The notes beneath the pieces are model-generated. The model had not been told where the DNA came from and made no database searches. It saw only the letters and a program-made list of their open reading frames with translations. The position numbers and the translations under genes are program-made. 64,000 nt of DNA from NCBI GenBank assembly GCA_963828465.1, contig CAWHEU010000002.1:64001-128000 (forward strand), given 5' to 3'. Below, in pieces: positions 39,367 through 47,977 of this stretch. This DNA is from an uncultured Acidobacteriota bacterium (lineage in GTDB: Bacteria > Actinomycetota > Acidimicrobiia > Spongiisociales > ZC4RG35). The stretch's first letter is position 1, and the number at the start of each line of letters is the position of its first letter.

Positions 39367-40317
39367 TCAAGAGTCTGCGATGGGACCGGTCGTCAAATCC
39401 CCGGGAGTCGCCCCGGCAGCCTCGTCGCGTTGCCAGATCGTCGCGTTCAAGGAGATAGAGGCGACTAGGGCGCGACAAACGATGTAGAGCCAGGCGAGGA
39501 AGACTCCGGCCATCCCGAGACCGCCATAGAGTTCGCTGGCATTCTCCAACCTCCACGTGAAATAGACAACGGTGGCAATTCGGATGATGAACCAAGCGGC
39601 AGTCATCAGCAACGCACCCGGGATCACCGCCGTCCATGGGGTCCCGTCCGGCCGAGGCAGCGCAGTGAAGAGCACGACATGGATAGCGGCGATTGCGAAG
39701 ATCGCAATCAAGTACACCAGAACGTCCACGATCCAAGGCCCGCCTTGCAGCCGGTCCGTCAGCAGCTGGATCGCAAGCATGGCCAGGACGAACCCGATAA
39801 CCGACAGTGAGGCCACCACCTTACGAACGGGCTTCGAGGCGCCCACCCTCCACGCGAGCCGGCTCGTCAGGAAGAGTGCGCGCACCACGCCCAAACCGGC
39901 CCAGAGAAGCAGGATGATGCCGAGTAAGGCCAGGTAGAGCAACGCTTTGTCTGAGGCGGCTACCGCGGCTTCAACCATCCTGGCAAGGGCGGGGATCAGA
40001 CCCGAGTCCTCTGCCAGCTCGGAAGGCGGACGATCGAGCCAGTCCGCCAGTGTGCCAATGACCACCACAAAGGACAGAGAGAAAGGGAGGAACCAGAGGA
40101 AGACCTTCACCGACAGCCCACCGGCAATCAGGCTGCCGGCAAAGGCCTGGTCCCGCTGATAGAAGTCGTATGCCACCCCGACGCTGGCACGTCGCTCTCG
40201 CTCGGTCTCGAGGCGTTCAAGAGCCCCTGTCTTCAGGGCCGTATAACGCTCCTTGAGCTGCTCGATCCGTCCTTGGTCGACTTCCTCGGCGTCGCTCGAT
40301 GCAGGAGAATCGGCCAC
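39367..40317 (-). CDS. YihY/BrkB family membrane protein
   Basis: AGGLSVKVFLWFLPF, PGALL, LYGGLGMAGVFLAWLYI...LNA. Confidence 0.75.
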   Translation of the reverse strand: MADSPASSDAEEVDQGRIEQLKERYTALKTGALERLETERERRASVGVAYDFYQRDQAFAGSLIAGGLSVKVFLWFLPFSLSFVVVIGTLADWLDRPPSELAEDSGLIPALARMVEAAVAASDKALLYLALLGIILLLWAGLGVVRALFLTSRLAWRVGASKPVRKVVASLSVIGFVLAMLAIQLLTDRLQGGPWIVDVLVYLIAIFAIAAIHVVLFTALPRPDGTPWTAVIPGALLMTAAWFIIRIATVVYFTWRLENASELYGGLGMAGVFLAWLYIVCRALVASISLNATIWQRDEAAGATPGDLTTGPIADS

Positions 40318-40336: not shown

Positions 40337-41687
40337 TCAGCCCGACGGCTGGGCCAGGATGAAGCCCTCTAAGGCCTCCGTGAGTGGCGCCTCCGATATC
40401 ACGACTTCGGGATCGGTGAACCGCCGGCTCGTTCGCCCGTTGAACGAGAGCCGAACATCGGCGGCGACCTCGAACCGTCCTCCGAGGTCGTCGGCGATGA
40501 GCCGGGCGGTCTGACGGATCATCACCGGGTCGGTAGCCATGACCATCAGCTGTCGCTCGGTCAGGTAATCGGGGGGTGGCACCTTCCAGCTCTTCCCCGA
40601 CGCCGCATCGGTGACCACGAAGTCCGCCGACGCCGATTTCTCGCTGAGCATCACCTGCCACGACCCGAGATACCCCTCGCCGGTCCACTTGACATCGCCC
40701 GGGGTGAGATGGTGGCGAAGGGGCAGGGCGATCATCACCGCTATGTACACGGCGCCGACCCCGATCCAGGCTGGGTGGAGCCGCGGCCGGTTGCCCAACG
40801 ACCCCCTCCGGCCCTTCGGGCCACCTCCCCCAACGTCGCTTTGCTCCTGGGGGAGGAAATGCTCGGGCCATGCCGGGTCGAAGAAGACGAGGGCGGACAG
40901 GCTCATCAGGAGCGGGAACAGGCCGATGGAGGGGAACATCAGCCAGGTCAGGGTGTGAAAGACGACCAGCGCCACATAGGCATATGGCCGTGAGGGCCGC
41001 CATGAGAGCCAGCCGACGATGGTGAGATCGAACAGTGCACCCGCCCACGAGAACAGGTAGGCGACCACCGGGAGAGTCAACACCGGGCCGATCAGCCACA
41101 TCTCAGATCGGGCCGGCAGCCAGGTCGACAGCGGCTCTGCGCGCAACAGCCAGTCTCCGTTGAGCTTGGCCAGTCCGGCGAAGACATAGACCATCCCTAC
41201 CTGGAAGCGGAGCATCCAGATCACCCATGCCGGATACCGGCTCGGTGTGCGGACGCGGCCCTGTCGCGGCATCGAGCGAGAGGGTGGCGCTCAACGGGAG
41301 GAAGACCATGACCGCCGCGGTGAGGACCACCCAGTAGTAGTGATTGAGGTAGAGACTCCGGTCGATCAGCTCCACGTAGCCGAGACTCACGGCAAACAGA
41401 CCGGCGGACAGCCGGTAGCGGTATCCGATGGCGATGCCAAGGGCGGACAGGCCGATCACCAGGAAATGGAGGTGCATCCACGGCTCGGGCCATACCCGCA
41501 CCCATTCGAAGCCGGGATAGGAGAAGTGATACGCCGGCTCGATCAGGAGCGTCTCGATCCAGCCCCGGGCGAAGAACCGGACGACGAGAACCACGCCGAC
41601 GATCCCGAAACCGATGCGGAACAAGGCTCCGGAGGCGGCGCTCACCTCCTCGGCCGCCATCGCCCTGATCGAGGAGGTCGAGATCAC
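40337..41687 (-). CDS. HTTM-domain protein, full-length vitamin K-dependent gamma-glutamyl carboxylase homolog (frameshift near 41262)
   Basis: LFRIGFG, YLNHYY, LSLDA, VYVFAGLAKLNGDW, FH...IGLFP, WTGEGYLGSWQVML, SFNGR...FTDP. GTG overlaps the upstream TGA. Confidence 0.88.
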
Positions 41688-42727
41688 CCGGTATCACCGT
41701 CGGTATCGGAGAAGCCGAGCGTGATGTCCAACAGCGAGACCACGTCCGACTCGAAGAGTGTCCTCAGTTCGGCGATGTCCTCGTAGATGGGCTCGAGCTC
41801 TTCCGGGCGGTCCCGAGCGATGTCACGCATTGGGCCCTCGAGGGCGCTCACCTCGGCGATCGCTCGGTCGAGCGTCTCGTCGATGCGATCGGCTACGTCG
41901 GGCGATCTGGCCCGGATCAATTCACCGAGCGAGTCTTCGCCACCGGCATCGAGCGCCACTCGGATGCTCTCCAGTTGGGATCGGTACATGGCGGCCGCCT
42001 CGCCGGCTGCGCCCTCCGGGATGGCTTCGATGTCGGGCTCTGGCGCCGAGATGCCCAGGGCCTGGCCCAGCTCGAACAGGCTCTGACGTTTCAACGTCTC
42101 GACGAAAGAGGCGATGAGATCGCCGAAGGACTGATTGGGCGGGATCACCACCGTGTAGACGTCTACCCAAGGCTCACCACCGTTGAACGATGTGGTCCAG
42201 GAATCCACGAGGGCTGTGGCCGCATTTGCCGCGACGACGGCGGACGAAGCTGCCAGGGCGCAGGGCCGCTCCTCGGCGGCCAACTCGGGAGTACGGAACA
42301 GTGCGTACTCCACGGCCCCGAGACCGCGTTGCGTGGAGGCGGCGCGGTCGTCGATGTATTCGACATCGATGATTGTGTCCGAGGCGAGCAACTCGTCGAT
42401 TCCGAGCTCGGAGATGGGGGCGTAGTCCACTTTCGACACTGTCCGGAGCATTTCGGCAGGGCCGAAGAATGTGGTCAGCTCGGACCGCTCCCAGGCCTCT
42501 TTGGCCGTCCGCCAGGCTTCCGTCGCGGCCTCGTGTGTGTCGCCGTTGGGGGTCGAGCAGAACGACTCGGTCGCCGTGGAGAGGCCTGCGATCTCATCAG
42601 CGGCAGTCTCCATCGCAGGTATGAGCGCCAGATGTGCCGCGTTGGAGACCACGTCCACTTCCGGTGGCCCCGACGAACACGCGGTGATGGCGAGGCAAAG
42701 GATGGCGGCGGGCAGGAACCTTCTCAC
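41684..42727 (-). CDS. imelysin-like lipoprotein, second type
   Basis: Lipobox ITAC, RGLGAVEYALF in place of GxHxxE, C-terminal GFSDTDGD. GTG overlaps the upstream TGA. Confidence 0.85.
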   Translation of the reverse strand: MRRFLPAAILCLAITACSSGPPEVDVVSNAAHLALIPAMETAADEIAGLSTATESFCSTPNGDTHEAATEAWRTAKEAWERSELTTFFGPAEMLRTVSKVDYAPISELGIDELLASDTIIDVEYIDDRAASTQRGLGAVEYALFRTPELAAEERPCALAASSAVVAANAATALVDSWTTSFNGGEPWVDVYTVVIPPNQSFGDLIASFVETLKRQSLFELGQALGISAPEPDIEAIPEGAAGEAAAMYRSQLESIRVALDAGGEDSLGELIRARSPDVADRIDETLDRAIAEVSALEGPMRDIARDRPEELEPIYEDIAELRTLFESDVVSLLDITLGFSDTDGDTG

Positions 42728-44072
42728 AGTGACTCGAGGAACTCGATCAATTCCGAGCGTTGCTCCGGGCTGAGATCGACGAAGGCCTGCTTCGATGCCT
42801 CCGCTTCTCCTCCATGCCAGAGGATCGCCTCCTCCAGCGAGCGGGCCCGCCCGTCGTGCAGGAAGTTGAGGTTGCCGTTGACCGTCTCGGTCAGTCCGAT
42901 GCCCCATAGGGGCGGGGTTCGCCACTCCGAGCCCGTGGCCTCGCCGTCGGGTCGGCCGTCGGCGAGATCAGGTCCCATGTCGTGGAGCAGCAGGTCGGTG
43001 AATGGGTAGATCTCCTGGTCGGCGAGCGCCTCGATGTCGGACGAGCCGGTTTCCTGCCGTGGTTGATGACATGACACACAGCCGGCCTCTTCGAACAGTG
43101 ACGCGCCGGCCACCACACCTGGCTCGTCGAGGTTGCGCCGGGCCGGCACCGCGAGCGTCCGGTTGTAGAAGACCACCTGGTCGAAGAGGTCCTGTGTGAT
43201 CTCTGGTGAGCCACCGTTGATTGCCGATGCGCACTCGACCTGAGTCGGGGTGCAGTTGTCCGCGGGGAAGAGGGGCGAGGTGATGCCGATGTCACCGATG
43301 AAGGCGGCGGCCACCTGTTGTTCCACGGTCGGGACGTTTGCCTTCCACCCAAAGCGGCCCAGCGCCGACTCACCGGTGGAGACGTCGAGCACCCGGTTGG
43401 GCCGTCCCGAGATGCCGTCCTCGTCGGCGTCGTCGGGATCGGCCATGGCGAGCACGTCACTCTCCGGGATGGCTTCGAGGAGCCCGGCGCCGAAGACCGG
43501 AGGGGCCAGGCGGGGGGTCAGGATGGTCTCTACCGACACATCGCCGTAGGCGAGGTCCTCGAGCTCGTGGACGGGACGTCTCAGCTGGTAGGTGGATCCG
43601 TCGGGATAAGTCCCGGTCTCCTCGGTGTAGATGGTGCGGACCGACGCTTCCGGCTCGACGCCAAGGATCGCCCGGTCCTGGATCTGGTCTCCGTACACCG
43701 GATCGGGTTCGGCAATGTCGTCGTGGATGGTCGCGATTCTGAAGAGCAGACCCGGCTCATCGCCATCTGCCGACCCTCTCCCGTCGAGGAGATGGCACGA
43801 CGAGCACGATTGGGCGTTGAGCAGCGGCCCGAGACCGTCCCGCACATCGGTCGACGCGGGGGCAGTGACCCAATTCTGGGTGAAGAAGCTGTCACCGACC
43901 TCGAACACCGGCGTTCCTCGTCGGTCAGGTTCCGGGCCGAGTTGCCGAACGCGTTTCGATTCGAGGCGTCGGTGGTGCCCTCGCCCCCGCTCTCGGAAAC
44001 GAGCAGGTCCGAGCTTCCCGAACAGGCGACCGCCATGACGAGAGCGAGCCCGACCAGGGGCCGGGCTCGCAT
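42724..44072 (-). CDS. di-heme oxidoreductase (DHOR) family lipoprotein (frameshift near 43910)
   Basis: Lipobox AVAC, DGLGPLLNAQSCSSCH, GRFGWKA, GCVSCH, PFTDLLLHDMG, WRTPPLWG, LHDGRARSLEEAILWHGGE. Confidence 0.92.
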
Positions 44073-44103
44073 TTCCCACGTCAGGCGCTGCGGTCTCAAG
44101 TCC

Positions 44104-45249
44104 TCAGCTCAGATTCAGGTCCACCTCGAGGGCATCGGCTGCCTCGACGATCGTGTCGGTTTGGTCTTCGAGGCTTACGATCGTGTCGAATATTGCAACA
44201 CGTCCCGGGTCTTCGTCACTGACACCCTCGACGAGGTGCTGATCGAAGGGCGGGGGAATCTCCCCGGCGAGGGCGACACTGACCGCGATCTCGTCGGCCA
44301 GTCGGTCGGCCAGCTCCTGATTGTCGGCGGCGACCAGGTCGTAGATCCCGGGGCCGTCGACCCCGCCGACCTGGCCCAGGTACACGCGCTCGACACCAGA
44401 GGCGTTCCCGATGATGTCATTGGTCGTGTTGTCTGAGAAGCAGGAGTGCTCGTCCTCCTGGGAGCGGGCTTCGTAGGCCACGGTCATCCGCTCGCCGGCC
44501 AACTCTCCCCGACTCATCTCTCCCATTCCGGTCATGATCATGCCCAGCGCCTCTTCCGGGGGTAGAGCGAGGAACTCAACCCGGTAGTTGTCCCCGTCGG
44601 GAGCCCAGGCATCGACCATCTGGCCCAGATGAGTGAGAAGGAGGTCTGACGCCACGGTCAGGTATGCGGCGCGTCGGTCCGCATTTGTCCCGGTCGTGTA
44701 GTCCTCGACGGGCCGGGCCCCGGCTCCGTCTGTGGACAGGTCCTGGCCCCAGAGGAGAAACTCGATGGCGTGCCACCCGGTCGAGATGTTTGCCTCGCCG
44801 CCCTGCTCATTCAGAGAGACCAACAGGTCGGCGTCGATGGTCGGGTACTCGTCGGGCAGATTGATGACGCCGGCATCGGGTGAGCCATCGACGTAGTCGA
44901 TGTAGGCCTCGTCGAGTGGCCATGCGTTCAAGAGCCCTTCGACGCCATTCTCTTCGTTGTCGATCGGCCCACCGTAGAAGCGGAACGCTTCCGTGGGCCC
45001 GTAGTCGTCCCGGGCCGTGAGCCAGGCACCCTGAGCAGCGGCGAAGGTCTCCGCGTTTGGATCGGCGACGAAGGCGTCTATCGCCTCGTCCATCGTTGTG
45101 GCGCTGTCCAGGCTCATCTGATACGACTCGTGGACGAGGTCGGCGTAATTCTCGACCACTTCCGCCCGCATGTCGTCCGATGCACCGGTCCCGCAGGCCA
45201 CCAGGCCCACCGCCATCGCCACCGTCAAGCCAATCAGCCTCGACCTCAT
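44104..45249 (-). CDS. imelysin/IrpA-like iron-regulated lipoprotein
   Basis: Lipobox LVAC, TEAFRF, LNAWPLDEAYIDYV, TGWHAIEFLLWGQD (GxHxxE), GELAGERM, EDEHSCFSDNT. Confidence 0.93.
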   Translation of the reverse strand: MRSRLIGLTVAMAVGLVACGTGASDDMRAEVVENYADLVHESYQMSLDSATTMDEAIDAFVADPNAETFAAAQGAWLTARDDYGPTEAFRFYGGPIDNEENGVEGLLNAWPLDEAYIDYVDGSPDAGVINLPDEYPTIDADLLVSLNEQGGEANISTGWHAIEFLLWGQDLSTDGAGARPVEDYTTGTNADRRAAYLTVASDLLLTHLGQMVDAWAPDGDNYRVEFLALPPEEALGMIMTGMGEMSRGELAGERMTVAYEARSQEDEHSCFSDNTTNDIIGNASGVERVYLGQVGGVDGPGIYDLVAADNQELADRLADEIAVSVALAGEIPPPFDQHLVEGVSDEDPGRVAIFDTIVSLEDQTDTIVEAADALEVDLNLS

Positions 45250-45291
45250 CTCTCCAAGCTCCCACTCCAAGTCGTTAGGTACCGAAAGATA

Positions 45292-45317
45292 ATTTGCACT
45301 ACCCAGGTAGTGCAAAT
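45292..45317. promoter_or_regulatory. perfect palindromic operator between the imelysin operon and ferritin
   Basis: atttgcactacc-ca-ggtagtgcaaat: 12-bp arms, 2-nt spacer, AT-rich, in the divergent promoter region. Confidence 0.75.
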
Positions 45318-45379
45318 ACATCTTCGCCGGACTGTGGTCCGAATATGATCCGGCCGCCACGTCGAGAGAGGATCGCCCC

Positions 45380-45886
45380 ATGAAGCTGAACGAGGAGATG
45401 GAGAACGCGCTGAACGCCCAGGTCACGATGGAACTGGCGTCGGCGGCCTCCTATCTGCAGATGGCGGCCTATTTCTCTCATCAGAACCTGGACGGGATGA
45501 GCCGTTGGATGAGGGCGCAAGCCGAAGAGGAGCGCAGCCACGCCGATCGGTTCCTCGACTTCATCCTCGATCGCGGAGGAAAGGCCGTGATCGGGGAAGT
45601 GGAGGCGCCCCGTGGCGAGTTCAGCGGGGCCGAGGAGGTGTTCGCCACCGCCCTCTCCCAGGAGGAGGCAGTGACCGCGGCGATCCACGACCTCTACCGC
45701 CTCGCCGACAAACTCGGCGACTTGGCCAGCATCCCCTTCCTGCTCGACTTCATCTCCGAGCAGACCGAGGAGGAGGCCATGGTGAGCGCCATCGTCGACC
45801 GACTAGCCCTGGCCGACGGGCAATCAGGGGCGTTGTTCATCCTGGATCACGAGCTGGGGGGGCGGGAGGGCGACCTCGGAGTCTGA
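45380..45886 (+). CDS. ftnA: non-heme ferritin
   Basis: LNAQVTMELASAASYLQMA, QAEEERSHA, ALSQE..VT..I..LY, EQTEEE, LFILDHEL. Confidence 0.9.
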   Translation: MKLNEEMENALNAQVTMELASAASYLQMAAYFSHQNLDGMSRWMRAQAEEERSHADRFLDFILDRGGKAVIGEVEAPRGEFSGAEEVFATALSQEEAVTAAIHDLYRLADKLGDLASIPFLLDFISEQTEEEAMVSAIVDRLALADGQSGALFILDHELGGREGDLGV

Positions 45887-45961: not shown

Positions 45962-47059
45962 TCAGGCAGGCGTGATGCAGTCGTCCATGGAGCGAGGTGG
46001 CGCCTCGACCTCGTAGAGCTCGGGCTCGGGCGCGGGGATGGGGTTGTCGTCGGTCACCACGAAGCGGACCAATGCCCGGTACACCCCTTCGGCATAGGCC
46101 TGGCGGAAGGCGTCGGTCATGATGAGCGCTTCCTCGGATGGGTTGGAGATGTAGGCCCCCTCGATGATCGCGGCCGGGACCTCAGAAGTGGCCAGGAGCG
46201 TGTAGTAGTCGTCGCCGTCTTCCTCGACTCGGGCGGTGAGGCTCGACTCGCCGCCTACCCAGTCTGCCTCGAAGCCCTCGAAGGAGCGACGGAGCTCATC
46301 GACGAGGAGGCCGCCGAGTCGGGGCGACTGTTCGTTGTTCGCCGACACGAACGCTCCGGTGCCGGGCCCCTCTGTGTCGGCGGTGGGCTCGGTGTTGTGA
46401 TGGATGGATACGAGTGCTGTCGCCTCCACCGCGTTCCCCAGCTCCGCCCGGAACGTGAGGCCGAGCTCGTAGTCGCCCGCATTCGGGCCGTCCACGGAAC
46501 GGGTTGGGATCGCTGCCGCCGGGGCCTGATACGTGCTGCCGGGGGTGACCGCGCCGGACACCCAGTCGACGTCACGGGCCGAGGACAACAATTCGATGAC
46601 TCGTGACGACACATCGATGTTGACCTCGGCCTCGGTCAGCCCACTCGGGCCGACGGCTCCCAGGTCGGGGGCGCCGTGGCCGGCGTCGATCACGAAAACC
46701 GAGCCTCCCATGTCCTGACTTCTCGAAGTCGGGACGAAGCCGGGCTCCACCTGATCGACCGCGATCCAGCCCGGCCGGTTGCAGTTGTCGAGCACCTCGT
46801 AACCCCCGGCCACCTCCCCGGTCACGGGGAAGATCAGGTTCGCAGCGATCCCCTGACCGGTCTCACCTGCCGAGGGTGAAAGAGTCGCCTCGGCACCGGT
46901 GACCACATAGCCGACACGGCCGTTCTCCACGGGCGCGGTGGTCGTGTTTGTCGCCGGCTCCGCCCCGAATGGGGGGAACGGGATCAAACGCCAGGCAAGC
47001 ACGCCTGCGAACACGCCGAGGACGATGACGAGGACCGCGACCAGTCGGGCAGATCTCAA
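45962..47059 (-). CDS. N-acetylmuramoyl-L-alanine amidase (Amidase_3), membrane anchored
   Basis: IDAGHG, TEAEVN, LVSIHHN, PAAIIEGAYISNPSE, N-terminal TM helix. Start uncertain (TTG 47059). Confidence 0.87.
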   Translation of the reverse strand: MRSARLVAVLVIVLGVFAGVLAWRLIPFPPFGAEPATNTTTAPVENGRVGYVVTGAEATLSPSAGETGQGIAANLIFPVTGEVAGGYEVLDNCNRPGWIAVDQVEPGFVPTSRSQDMGGSVFVIDAGHGAPDLGAVGPSGLTEAEVNIDVSSRVIELLSSARDVDWVSGAVTPGSTYQAPAAAIPTRSVDGPNAGDYELGLTFRAELGNAVEATALVSIHHNTEPTADTEGPGTGAFVSANNEQSPRLGGLLVDELRRSFEGFEADWVGGESSLTARVEEDGDDYYTLLATSEVPAAIIEGAYISNPSEEALIMTDAFRQAYAEGVYRALVRFVVTDDNPIPAPEPELYEVEAPPRSMDDCITPA

Positions 47060-47152
47060 AACAGGTAAGACAGCAGGGTGCGTAGGACACCACAACCTCC
47101 GGCCAACGCAAAACCCGTGTTCGGGACCCGACGAATTGCCTACGGTTGAGAC

Positions 47153-47977
47153 ATGGCGACACTCGATGCCAGGAAGCGAGCCAGCTTGCCCGATAGCGCC
47201 TTTGCCTATGTCGACTCCGCGGGCAATCGGCGGCTGCCGATCAACGACGAGTCGCATGTCCGTAACGCTCTGTCCCGCTTCAATCAGGTCAAGTTCGAGA
47301 GCGAGGAGGCGAGGGAGCGAGCCTTTCGCCGCCTGCTCAAGGCCGCCACCAACTACGGGATCGCCCCGATCGGGTTCATCACCCGCCAGCTTCGCCAGGC
47401 CCGCGGGGCAGATTCCTCCGACCTGCCCTCGGGAGCCGTCACCTTGCTACTCAGCGACATCGAAGGCTCGACCAAGCTGGTCCAGGATCTCGGCGAGGGC
47501 TATTCCTCGGTCCTCGAAGAGGTACGGGCACTCATCCGGGAGACGGTCGGTCGTCACGCTGGATATGAGGTCGATTCGAGGGCCGACGAGTTCTTCGCCG
47601 TGTTTGCCGAGGCTGCCAGCGGAGTCGCCGCGGCCATCGAGATCCAGAGAGGGCTGCAGGATGCGATGTGGCCCGGCGGACATCAGGTGCGTGTCAGGAT
47701 CGGGCTGAACAGCGGGAGCCCGGCGGTCACAGACACCGGGTACGTCGGTCTTCCGGTGCATGTGATGGCCCGCGTGTGCAACGCGGGCCACGGCGGGCAG
47801 GTCTTGCTGACCGAAGCGACCCGGTCCGAGTTGGGTGCGCTCCCAGACGGCATCGAGCTCGATGCCCTCGGCGAATTCGCCCTAGCGGGGCTCCCCGAGC
47901 CCGAGACTCTGTTTCAGGTCAAGACGCACGGACTGATCGAGCAGTTTCCCCCACTGCGAGTCGCGGACCCGGCCTGA
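47153..47977 (+). CDS. DUF6582-like domain fused to a class III adenylate/guanylate cyclase domain
   Basis: N-domain RASLPDSAFAY...RRLPINDESHVRNALSRFNQV; cyclase domain TLLLSDIEGST, ADEFFAVF, VRIGLNSG, VHVMARV, GGQVLL. Confidence 0.85.
   Translation: MATLDARKRASLPDSAFAYVDSAGNRRLPINDESHVRNALSRFNQVKFESEEARERAFRRLLKAATNYGIAPIGFITRQLRQARGADSSDLPSGAVTLLLSDIEGSTKLVQDLGEGYSSVLEEVRALIRETVGRHAGYEVDSRADEFFAVFAEAASGVAAAIEIQRGLQDAMWPGGHQVRVRIGLNSGSPAVTDTGYVGLPVHVMARVCNAGHGGQVLLTEATRSELGALPDGIELDALGEFALAGLPEPETLFQVKTHGLIEQFPPLRVADPA

Follow-up and report, generated by a model that had tools for sequence, protein, structure and literature searches.

A putative iron module of a soil bacterium with a minimal GGCX-type enzyme that might carboxylate a docked imelysin

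The stretch of DNA analyzed here (the window, 64,000 nucleotides) carries a four-gene operon that, judged from its sequence, most likely serves monoderm bacteria as an accessory module for iron acquisition. Its last gene encodes a membrane protein with HTTM and VKGC-lumenal domains, in which the catalytic pocket of the vitamin-K-type carboxylase GGCX is retained, as indicated by residue conservation. It is a real possibility, though somewhat short of an even chance, that this soil bacterium uses the minimal GGCX-type enzyme for menaquinol-driven carboxylation of a docked imelysin, which would thereby become an Fe(III) chelator.

The operon and its iron setting

ORF calls and Pfam matches bear out the gene order of the first-pass annotation, with four minus-strand genes (imelysin, DHOR, imelysin, and HTTM) and a divergent ferritin gene, and the GTGA stop/start overlaps that it placed between the last three genes are exact, at 42727–42724 (DHOR/imelysin 2) and 41687–41684 (imelysin 2/HTTM). 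The features are as follows.

39367–40317, minus strand: YihY/BrkB-family membrane protein (PF03631, E = 4e-14)
40337–41687, minus strand: HTTM + VKGC-lumenal membrane protein (PF05090 and PF22777), in two frames
41684–42727, minus strand: imelysin 2, His-less (GxxxxE, IPPA type; PF09375, E = 7e-27; GLGAVE; lipobox ITAC)
42724–44072, minus strand: DHOR, di-haem lipoprotein (PF06537, E = 9e-104; CSSCH and CVSCH)
44104–45249, minus strand: imelysin 1 (PF09375, E = 9e-69; GWHAIE, of the GxHxxE form; lipobox LVAC)
45292–45317, no strand: inverted-repeat candidate operator ATTTGCACTA-N6-TAGTGCAAAT, between imelysin 1 and ferritin
45380–45886, plus strand: ferritin (PF00210, E = 2e-39), divergent, with the operator region in common with the operon

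The lipoboxes described for the first three products were also found (that of DHOR, AVAC, in the upstream frame), and the mature lipoproteins are Asp/Glu-rich as claimed, with combined fractions of 0.204, 0.190, and 0.176 versus a mean of 0.130 and a 95th percentile of 0.178 for the 1621 crude ORFs of 300 or more residues in the genome. One operon unites a GxHxxE imelysin, a di-haem DUF1111/DHOR protein, and a GxxxxE imelysin. By its sequence, imelysin 1 is an ICMP/LruB-type lipoprotein, with an NCBIfam LruB match that lies below the cut-off (E = 2e-47; 162 bits vs 850). Besides the lipoproteins, HTTM is the only membrane protein encoded in the operon, according to the ORF calls and Pfam. The YihY/BrkB gene, which starts 20 nt past the HTTM stop and holds this downstream position only in close relatives, is possibly co-transcribed.

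The first three genes are the same, and in the same order, in P. aeruginosa PA4370–PA4373, V. cholerae VC1264–VC1266, and Leptospira lruB, Fur/iron-regulated operons that also combine an ICMP/LruB-type GxHxxE imelysin and DUF1111/DHOR with an IPPA-type GxxxxE imelysin ending in the same C-terminal tail. Unlike in those operons, all three products are lipoproteins here, searches of the genome (92% complete) gave neither Omp85 nor a TonB-dependent receptor, the fourth place is taken by HTTM instead of DUF1513, the usual fourth gene of such clusters, and the candidate operator contains no recognisable Fur or IdeR box. The search for DUF1513 (PF07433) in the genome gave no match, but it was positive in none of 14 control genomes, so that this negative is weak. 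A search for the EfeU/FTR1 permease (PF03239), positive in four control genomes, gave no match in the same genome. In the account of PMC3143127, as far as available, EfeUOB/FepABC combine an extracytoplasmic imelysin-fold protein with a haem peroxidase-like partner and a component in the membrane, whereas the present module has no EfeU/FTR1 permease or cupredoxin domain, and has DHOR instead of a DyP peroxidase.

The candidate operator of the locus appears to be common to Fe–S and iron genes: its half-sites are kept, with a variable spacer, at the same place in the loci of 16 relatives, and five similar sites in the genome lie upstream of suf genes, Mrp, and an ABC importer. The ferritin gene has the same place in seven close relatives, and ferritin-like matches occur near the module in six Chloroflexota loci. 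The accessible portions of two reports tie imelysin–DHOR–imelysin operons to iron regulation (PMC3143127, PMC13066512), and the lruB–DHOR–imelysin operon of Leptospira is described there as dipyridyl-induced (PMC13066512). In Table 4 of a study on Riemerella anatipestifer, consecutive tags (RAYM_09779–09794) belong to a TonB receptor gene, a gene annotated as 'Vitamin K-dependent gamma-carboxylase', an imelysin lipoprotein gene, and a gene for a hypothetical protein, with ratios of 2.1–3.1 under iron restriction (PMC5609570). An annotated carboxylase thus adjoins an imelysin lipoprotein gene there, both being induced by iron restriction, although that study passes over the pair without comment; the likeness is by annotation, and this cluster belongs to a diderm member of Bacteroidota, includes a TonB-dependent receptor, and has no DHOR among its entries in that table.

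Among 80 related loci of Acidimicrobiia and Chloroflexota, a His-less imelysin is located beside or near HTTM in 79 (within 1 kb in 78), and the sole exception begins at a contig end. The two genes are co-directional in 32 loci, convergent in 47, and divergent in G179, and three loci carry a two-gene module only, composed of HTTM and one imelysin without DHOR. As judged from these neighborhoods, HTTM belongs to the imelysin module as one of its conserved genes. In the 47 convergent loci, it runs toward the lipoprotein genes and is not co-transcribed with them. Within the class, VKGC_lumenal is patchy (8 of 201 genomes, and none of the three from the same genus); DHOR and VKGC_lumenal are both present in six of the 201, and adjacent in all six.

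A minimal GGCX-type protein and its predicted partner

The two halves of the HTTM gene match PF05090 at profile positions 4–139 and 137–259 (122.7 and 107.6 bits), and PF22777 is matched with 101.9 bits (E = 4e-29; cut-off, 27.7 for each); intact orthologs contain both the HTTM and VKGC-lumenal domains. In phmmer comparison with human GGCX, matches were obtained at residues 60–184 and 192–491 (E = 3e-16 and 8e-9), a range that corresponds to the transmembrane domain, linker, and PBD-1. An AF2 model of P0001, an intact ortholog 89% identical to the HTTM protein (pLDDT, 91), gave GGCX for all of the top 16 Foldseek matches (TMq, 0.68–0.83; 0.80–0.83 for the first 14, with 25% identity), so that the structural comparison suggested by the first-pass annotation supports the same fold. 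Its claim of likeness along the entire length holds for the quoted motifs, which align, but covers only residues 60–491 of the 758 in human GGCX. Both alignment and fold match stop at residue 491, where the HTTM protein ends with a length typical of its bacterial family (about 440 residues), and PBD-2, Arch, and CTD of animal GGCX are absent from both comparisons; without these domains, no complete propeptide clamp would be formed.

The HTTM protein is identical to GGCX at the catalytic Lys218, Asp263, Val210, Trp223, Phe286, Phe294, Ala214, and Gly259. Among 61 homologs, the equivalents of Asn159, His160, Val210, Lys218, Asp222, Trp223, Asp263, Phe286, His287, Phe294, Phe299, Tyr395, Trp399, and Met402 are invariant, and those of Ala214, Gly259, and Trp390 nearly so. 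As far as described in the available parts of two reports on the GGCX pocket (10.1101/2025.02.09.637231, PMC12647623), Asn159, His160, and Tyr395 bind the Glu carboxylate and Phe299 stacks on CO2 (PMC12647623); HTTM has the same residue at each of these four positions, without variation among the homologs, and the residues of the quinone tunnel are also the same. Because His160, Phe286, Phe294, and Phe299 line the quinone site as well, their conservation alone is no proof of carboxylation. HTTM differs at the positions of Asn158, Lys217, Met401, and His404, and these changes, together with the missing domains, indicate that substrate recognition must differ from that in GGCX. By homology with GGCX, the lumenal-type domain should face the lipoprotein side.

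A complex of HTTM with the His-less imelysin 2 was predicted with a score of 0.63 (0.62–0.66 in three runs that share at least 58% of contacts; pLDDT of the partner, 88), as compared with 0.00 for the best of three controls; the score mark, which was attained with 58 of 80 complexes of solved structure and with 2 of 110 mismatched pairs, is only roughly valid here because the alignments for the model were home-made. The modeled interface is composed of residues 114–116 (the Asn158/Asn159/His160 positions), 251–255, and 345–346, and the PBD-1-like domain of HTTM, and of residues 3–8, 209–214, 306–321, and the tail residues 327–329 of imelysin 2. HTTM is thus predicted to bind imelysin 2, although the model does not single out the imelysin segment that would enter the pocket. 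The C-terminal tail of imelysin 2 (GFSDTDGD), also found in the homolog 3pf0, is nearly invariant in 47 orthologs, its invariant residues being Asp; no invariant Glu was found in the tether among these orthologs.

Proposed reaction and competing explanations

In the mechanism that we propose, a repressor site common to suf, Mrp, the ABC importer, and ferritin would control the four-gene operon, and the three very acidic lipoproteins would sit, lipid-anchored, on the outside of the cell membrane. HTTM would act as a minimal GGCX-type enzyme with the menaquinol pocket, catalytic Lys, CO2-trapping Phe, and carboxylate-binding Asn/His/Tyr, but with the first half of the substrate clamp only (PBD-1). 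The His-less imelysin may dock on this half-clamp so that its acidic and flexible N-terminal tether, its C-terminal D-x-D-G-D tail, or both lie at the pocket mouth, and menaquinol and O2 would then drive carboxylation of an acidic residue, converting Glu to Gla or Asp to its β-carboxy form. The resulting malonate-type chelator could capture the Fe(III) that DHOR and its imelysin partner generate and pass it to a separate importer. The presence of menA in the genome fits the need for menaquinone. Points against this mechanism are that no VKOR was found, that PBD-2, Arch, and CTD are lacking and four pocket positions are altered, that the tether has no invariant Glu, that the invariant tail residues are Asp and the tail recurs in 3pf0, that the module is patchy, and that HTTM is convergent in 47 loci. 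That the locus represents the first bacterial vitamin-K-type protein carboxylation, in which a menaquinone-dependent minimal GGCX modifies the tether or tail of the docked His-less imelysin into a Gla-like chelator, is a tentative and rather doubtful proposal. A precedent is MloH, a bacterial homolog reported to act as a carboxylase on an aspartyl residue (PMC12647623, 10.64898/2026.08.19.745780); the likeness is by description, MloH being an HTTM-type enzyme of the malonomycin pathway with a fused extra region, whose substrate is a polyketide–peptide intermediate in a biosynthetic cluster, whereas the predicted partner of HTTM, a folded lipoprotein, belongs to an iron module.

It is also conceivable, albeit unlikely, that HTTM carries out no carboxylation and acts as a menaquinol-linked redox partner, in which the bound quinol, deprotonated by Lys, exchanges electrons with imelysin-held iron or the DHOR haems, and the quinone is recycled afterwards by the respiratory chain. 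VKOR (PF07884) was found in none of six carrier genomes (the present one, 92% complete, and five others, 95–98% complete) by a search positive in three control genomes, leaving no known route for recycling menaquinone epoxide, which fits turnover of quinone better than that of epoxide; VKOR is the partner that human GGCX has. DHOR moreover needs an electron donor or acceptor, no other membrane protein is encoded in the operon, and several residues conserved in the pocket also lie along the quinone site, as described above. Electron exchange is, however, difficult to reconcile with the quinone being the only redox center in GGCX-type proteins, and with the invariance of the CO2-stacking Phe and of the equivalents of Asn159 and Tyr395, which in GGCX bind the substrate carboxylate and not the quinone. 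In the three loci without DHOR, the redox partner would have to be imelysin-bound iron.

Quite unlikely, in our estimate, is that vitamin-K-type oxygenation serves some other base-driven reaction, or that HTTM is mainly a membrane dock or iron conduit replacing EfeU or DUF1513. HTTM is the sole polytopic membrane protein of the module, its docking model with imelysin would suit such a role, and neither FTR1 nor DUF1513 was found in the genome. A Leptospira homolog is said to have shown epoxidase but no carboxylase activity, in work by Rishavy in 2005. Nevertheless, the fold has no known transport function, the whole catalytic pocket is strictly conserved, which speaks for catalysis, and the DUF1513 part of the argument is weakened by its controls.

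The 1-nt frameshifts that had been noticed near 41262 and 43910 were located at 41267/8, as one extra base in the HTTM gene, and at 43907/8, as one missing base in the DHOR gene. The HTTM site is in frame in all eight relatives and in the three covering public contigs (two in X1 and one in X2; in-frame depth, 14.6 of 14.6 and 4.11 of 4.11, respectively), and the DHOR site in all six relatives and both covering contigs (5.04 of 5.04 in X1 and 2.3 of 2.3 in X3). Both frameshifts are private to this assembly and no feature of the population; a real inactivating frameshift, which would have spoken against the proposal, is not borne out by the contigs available. A decaying pseudogene cluster with two real frameshifts is therefore very improbable, even though two 1-nt indels fall inside 5.5 kb of an accessory module missing from all three same-genus genomes, since the frames are otherwise open and well conserved and sister assemblies have similar split matches in other genes, as expected of assembly indel error.

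Implications for bacterial GGCX relatives

GGCX has many relatives in bacteria (6086 cluster representatives at E values up to 0.001, and 2105 at 1e-30), and in the literature searched an assigned role was found for MloH alone. With the present locus, a specific candidate partner that is widely conserved can be named for bacterial vitamin-K-type carboxylases, together with a setting, iron limitation, and the question of their function becomes directly testable with two proteins. The working of imelysin systems has been called poorly understood, in the accessible part of one report (PMC3143127); for the monoderm systems, HTTM may supply the missing membrane component, and the candidate regulator site suggests a tie between the module and Fe–S assembly. 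If the proposed carboxylation is true, menaquinone would serve iron acquisition as a cofactor in Actinomycetota and Chloroflexota, and probably also in Bacteroidota, and the module would point to the ancestral job of an enzyme later used by animals for clotting factors.

Gene content and reading frames of the imelysin operon

Positions 40337–45886 of the window hold four genes on the minus strand and, divergent from them, a ferritin gene.

Features of the imelysin locus (window positions)
44104–45249, minus strand: imelysin 1 (PF09375, E 9e-69), with GWHAIE as its GxHxxE motif and the lipobox LVAC
42724–44072, minus strand: di-haem protein DHOR (PF06537, E 9e-104), with two CxxCH motifs and the lipobox AVAC
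41684–42727, minus strand: imelysin 2 (PF09375, E 7e-27), with GLGAVE, no His, and the lipobox ITAC
40337–41687, minus strand: HTTM protein in two frames (frameshift), with PF05090 at positions 4–139 and 137–259, and PF22777 (E 4e-29)
45380–45886, plus strand, divergent: ferritin (PF00210, E 2e-39)

The GTGA stop/start overlaps reported in the first-pass annotation are placed exactly, and its description of the lipoproteins as very rich in Asp and Glu holds true: the mature proteins have D+E fractions of 0.204, 0.190, and 0.176 (pI ~4.05–4.11), against a mean of 0.130 and a 95th percentile of 0.178 for 1621 crude genome ORFs of at least 300 residues. A gene for a YihY/BrkB-family membrane protein (39367–40317) begins 20 nt past the HTTM stop, a position kept only in close relatives. 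Beyond ferritin lies an Amidase_3 (N-acetylmuramoyl-L-alanine amidase) gene (45962–47257), which is also nearby in several close relatives.

The HTTM gene contains one surplus base at 41267/8, and the DHOR gene is one base short at 43907/8. Relatives and public contigs both argue against genuine inactivation by these shifts, a concern raised at the outset. In blastn, a single-base indel relative to the window was found in 8/8 relatives at the first site and 6/6 at the second, and all covering contigs from 4 of the 22 listed public runs are in frame (41267/8: depth 14.6/14.6 in contig set X1 and 4.11/4.11 in X2; 43907/8: 5.04/5.04 in X1 and 2.3/2.3 in X3). The public runs contain no more than 0.49 of the sampled words and therefore represent related strains, not the proven source sample; none of the 22 listed is an RNA run. 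Split matches of similar kind occur in other genes of sister assemblies. We regard both indels as very probably assembly errors; a private, recent decay of the operon in this strain is very unlikely.

Neither Omp85 nor a TonB-dependent receptor, the latter already reported as missing from the locus, was found in the genome (3.07 Mb in 29 contigs, 92% complete; the window is on contig 2), which fits a monoderm cell whose membrane carries the lipoproteins on its outer face. Because of these absences, the Acidobacteriota label looks wrong. The relatives' loci L004, L006, L009–L012, L014, L045, and L064, with DNA 76–91% identical to the window, are also titled 'uncultured Acidobacteriota bacterium'; the records of the other nearest relatives are named Acidimicrobiia or Actinomycetota.

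Relation of the HTTM protein to GGCX

Full-length homologs of the HTTM protein are ~440 residues long (1321 matches at E ≤ 1e-5; the best, 84–89% identical), and its two halves align with residues 60–184 and 192–491 of human GGCX. The AlphaFold2 model of P0001, an intact ortholog of 89% identity (pLDDT, 91.1; pTM, 0.89), retrieved human GGCX as all of the top 16 matches in a Foldseek search of the PDB (TMq, 0.68–0.83, with 0.80–0.83 for the first 14; E down to 1e-18), so that alignment and fold both bear out the proposed kinship. Compared with the human enzyme, as delimited in the domain description of 10.1101/2025.02.09.637231, the HTTM protein has the transmembrane domain, linker, and PBD-1, but is without PBD-2, Arch, and CTD. 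The first-pass term 'full-length' GGCX homolog is thus sound as to homology and not as to extent, only the catalytic core with half of the substrate clamp being present.

In the HMMER alignments, the residues equivalent to human N159, H160, V210, A214, K218, D222, W223, G259, D263, F286, H287, F294, F299, W390, Y395, W399, and M402 are the same as in GGCX, and these 17 positions are invariant or nearly invariant among 61 homologs (alignments A2 and A4, 61 sequences each, from 120 listed homologs of the 1321 matches). According to PMC12647623 and 10.1101/2025.02.09.637231, K218 of GGCX is the base deprotonating the hydroquinone, F299 stacks on CO2, the substrate Glu carboxylate is held by N159, H160, and Y395, and the quinone pocket is lined by several of those same residues. 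Conservation of the pocket was already known, since PMC12647623 reports conservation of these residues in bacterial relatives; the same paper describes carboxylation of an aspartyl residue by MloH, and the 131-species alignment behind its Fig. 6b may already include this clade. In contrast, human K217, N158, M401, and H404 correspond to different residues in the HTTM protein, and R436 is ambiguous, with a conserved Arg one or two positions off.

The loop between the HTTM and lumenal domains (window 40780–40860; GGGGPKGRRG...) is highly variable in length among close relatives; residues 284–295 of the HTTM model, within this loop, form its only low-confidence stretch (pLDDT < 50), and the database homologs P0102 and P0104 shift frame just past it. 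No HTTM–imelysin fusion was found among 10 longer representatives, which have no imelysin domain (one has TPR repeats). A 795-residue protein considered as a fusion candidate was rejected, its extension being Arg-rich read-through.

Linkage to the His-less imelysin and a predicted complex

The co-occurrence of HTTM and imelysin genes noticed in the first-pass annotation extends well beyond this genome. Among the best 80 of 479 relatives (one genome per species), a His-less imelysin gene adjoins or lies near the HTTM gene in 79 loci, within 1 kb in 78, and the single exception starts at a contig end; of these 80 loci, 75 also have DHOR and 71 imelysin 1. The HTTM and imelysin genes are co-directional in 32 loci, mainly from Acidimicrobiia, convergent in 47, mainly from Chloroflexota/Dehalococcoidia, and divergent in genome G179. 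Three loci hold a minimal module of HTTM and one His-less imelysin, with no DHOR. In one of the minimal module loci, L060 (6488–7555), a Peripla_BP_2 (siderophore/haem-type) binding protein gene lies divergent beside the imelysin, which has a membrane anchor helix in place of the lipobox. The His-less imelysin of the Chloroflexota locus L027 (10401–11420) has an in-frame stop, which reflects either pseudogenisation or a fault of the assembly.

Within the class (even sample of 201 genomes), VKGC_lumenal was found in 8 genomes, DHOR above the cut-off in 18, and both in 6, being adjacent in 6/6. The module is accessory, since it is present in 0/3 same-genus genomes. In this class, DHOR also occurs in other settings, as judged from ten DHOR-only Acidimicrobiia genomes (L118–L127) with a paralog 36–51% identical and no imelysin within ~7 kb; the DHOR match of genome G004 is on a 2.8-kb contig, too short to judge its neighbours. 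Genome G001 (locus L117, contig C150, 3304–5681) has DHOR and a His-less imelysin without HTTM or imelysin 1, and this imelysin, a single case, is devoid of the GF-x-D-x-DGD tail that is conserved at the C-terminus elsewhere. The HTTM protein's Atlas neighbours belong to Actinomycetota and Bacteroidota clusters. The sole trace of a carboxylase–imelysin pairing in the literature searched is Table 4 of PMC5609570, in which consecutive Riemerella locus tags denote a TonB-dependent receptor, a 'Vitamin K-dependent gamma-carboxylase', an imelysin lipoprotein, and a hypothetical protein, with iron-restriction ratios of 2.1–3.1; the pair draws no comment in the available portion of that paper.

A complex of the HTTM protein with the mature His-less imelysin was modeled for the intact relative L014, using alignments of 61 and 47 rows; the latter (A3) comprises 47 of the 71 available mature imelysin-2 sequences, L027 being excluded for its in-frame stop. 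The model scored 0.63 (0.62–0.66 in three runs) versus 0.00 for the best of three controls, with a partner pLDDT of 88 and at least 58% of contacts shared between runs. The score mark is passed by 58/80 solved complexes and 2/110 mismatched pairs, counts that are approximate here, with self-made alignments. Since there is no solved structure of a similar complex, the pass is unlikely to reflect memorised structures. In the model, the lowest-error contacts join the last helix (306–321) and LGxALG loop (209–214) of the imelysin to the PBD-1-like domain (351–370 and 412–420). The predicted interface also includes, at the pocket mouth, HTTM residues 114–116 (the N158/N159/H160 positions), 251–255, and 345–346, and, in the imelysin, residues 3–8, just past the lipidated Cys, and tail residues 327–329; either end of the imelysin may touch the pocket. 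The motif of its tail, VVSLLg-x-x-GF-s-D-t-DGD, is almost invariant in 47 imelysin-2 orthologs, and homolog 3pf0 terminates in it too; this acidic element, flexible and conserved, thus belongs to the IPPA-type family at large and is not peculiar to the HTTM-linked copies.

Candidate regulon and possible function

A perfect inverted repeat, ATTTGCACTA-N6-TAGTGCAAAT, is located at 45292–45317 between imelysin 1 and ferritin, 43–68 nt upstream of the former and 63–88 nt upstream of the latter. It occupies the same place in 16 relatives' loci, with conserved half-sites and a variable spacer. A sigma-70/terminator scan flagged this palindrome as terminator-like and gave otherwise no useful result. 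With ≤4 mismatches permitted over the 18 half-site positions, six operator sites were found in the genome, the other five being at C21:71380, C22:212436, C22:221246, C28:30364, and C9:44350 of G000 (this genome).

Gene contexts of further operator sites
upstream of sufB
upstream of another SufB/D gene
at the start of a SufC-like ATPase gene, followed by SufS
upstream of an Mrp/NUBPL Fe-S carrier gene
upstream of a Sfu/PhnS2-type ABC importer made up of a binding protein, a fused double permease, and an ATPase, whose matches stay below the curated cut-offs

Chance would give 0.06 sites at ≤2 mismatches, 1.0 at ≤3, and 12 at ≤4; the two weakest sites are therefore backed solely by their position. 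Judging from these sites, the imelysin operon may be regulated by iron, and, together with ferritin, the suf genes, Mrp/NUBPL, and the ABC importer, may constitute an iron- or Fe-S-responsive regulon. No match to an IdeR-box consensus was found in the window at ≤3 mismatches, and in 34 Chloroflexota loci of convergent arrangement the upstream regions of HTTM and imelysin 1 had no palindrome in common. Homologous operons are described as induced by iron limitation in Leptospira (three genes; PMC13066512) and as Fur-controlled in Pseudomonas and Vibrio (PMC3143127).

The three-lipoprotein-gene operon, the HTTM family, and its conserved pocket were all known previously. The literature searched yielded neither an imelysin link of the HTTM family nor, more specifically, the conserved pairing across phyla of a minimal GGCX and a His-less imelysin, their complex as predicted here, the two-gene minimal module, or the operator regulon; earlier mentions of any of these may exist.

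The gene content, conserved pocket, conserved linkage, and passing binding model are observed or directly supported; the orientation of the active site, the cofactor, and the iron control are inferred. Homology to GGCX, in which this side is lumenal, would place the HTTM active site on the outside; menaquinone is its probable cofactor, menA being present, and MqnA was not found in the genome (92% complete). Our preferred reading, held tentatively, is a putative carboxylation of the docked imelysin. Against it, VKOR, the epoxide reductase of the vitamin K cycle, was found in none of the six module carriers searched, half of the substrate clamp is missing, the tether has no invariant Glu, the tail has Asp as its acidic residue and recurs on 3pf0, and HTTM is transcribed convergently in many genomes; moreover, the Leptospira HTTM homolog reportedly has no carboxylase activity. 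A quinol-linked redox partner that performs no carboxylation, as also proposed in the first-pass annotation, is considered unlikely. Another base-driven reaction, or a role as a dock or conduit, is quite unlikely. In the preferred carboxylation, menaquinol and O2 would drive the modification of the docked imelysin at an acidic residue, and the carboxylated residue would provide a malonate-type ligand for Fe(III); DHOR and imelysin 1 would take EfeB/EfeO-like roles, and iron would be taken up via a separate importer.
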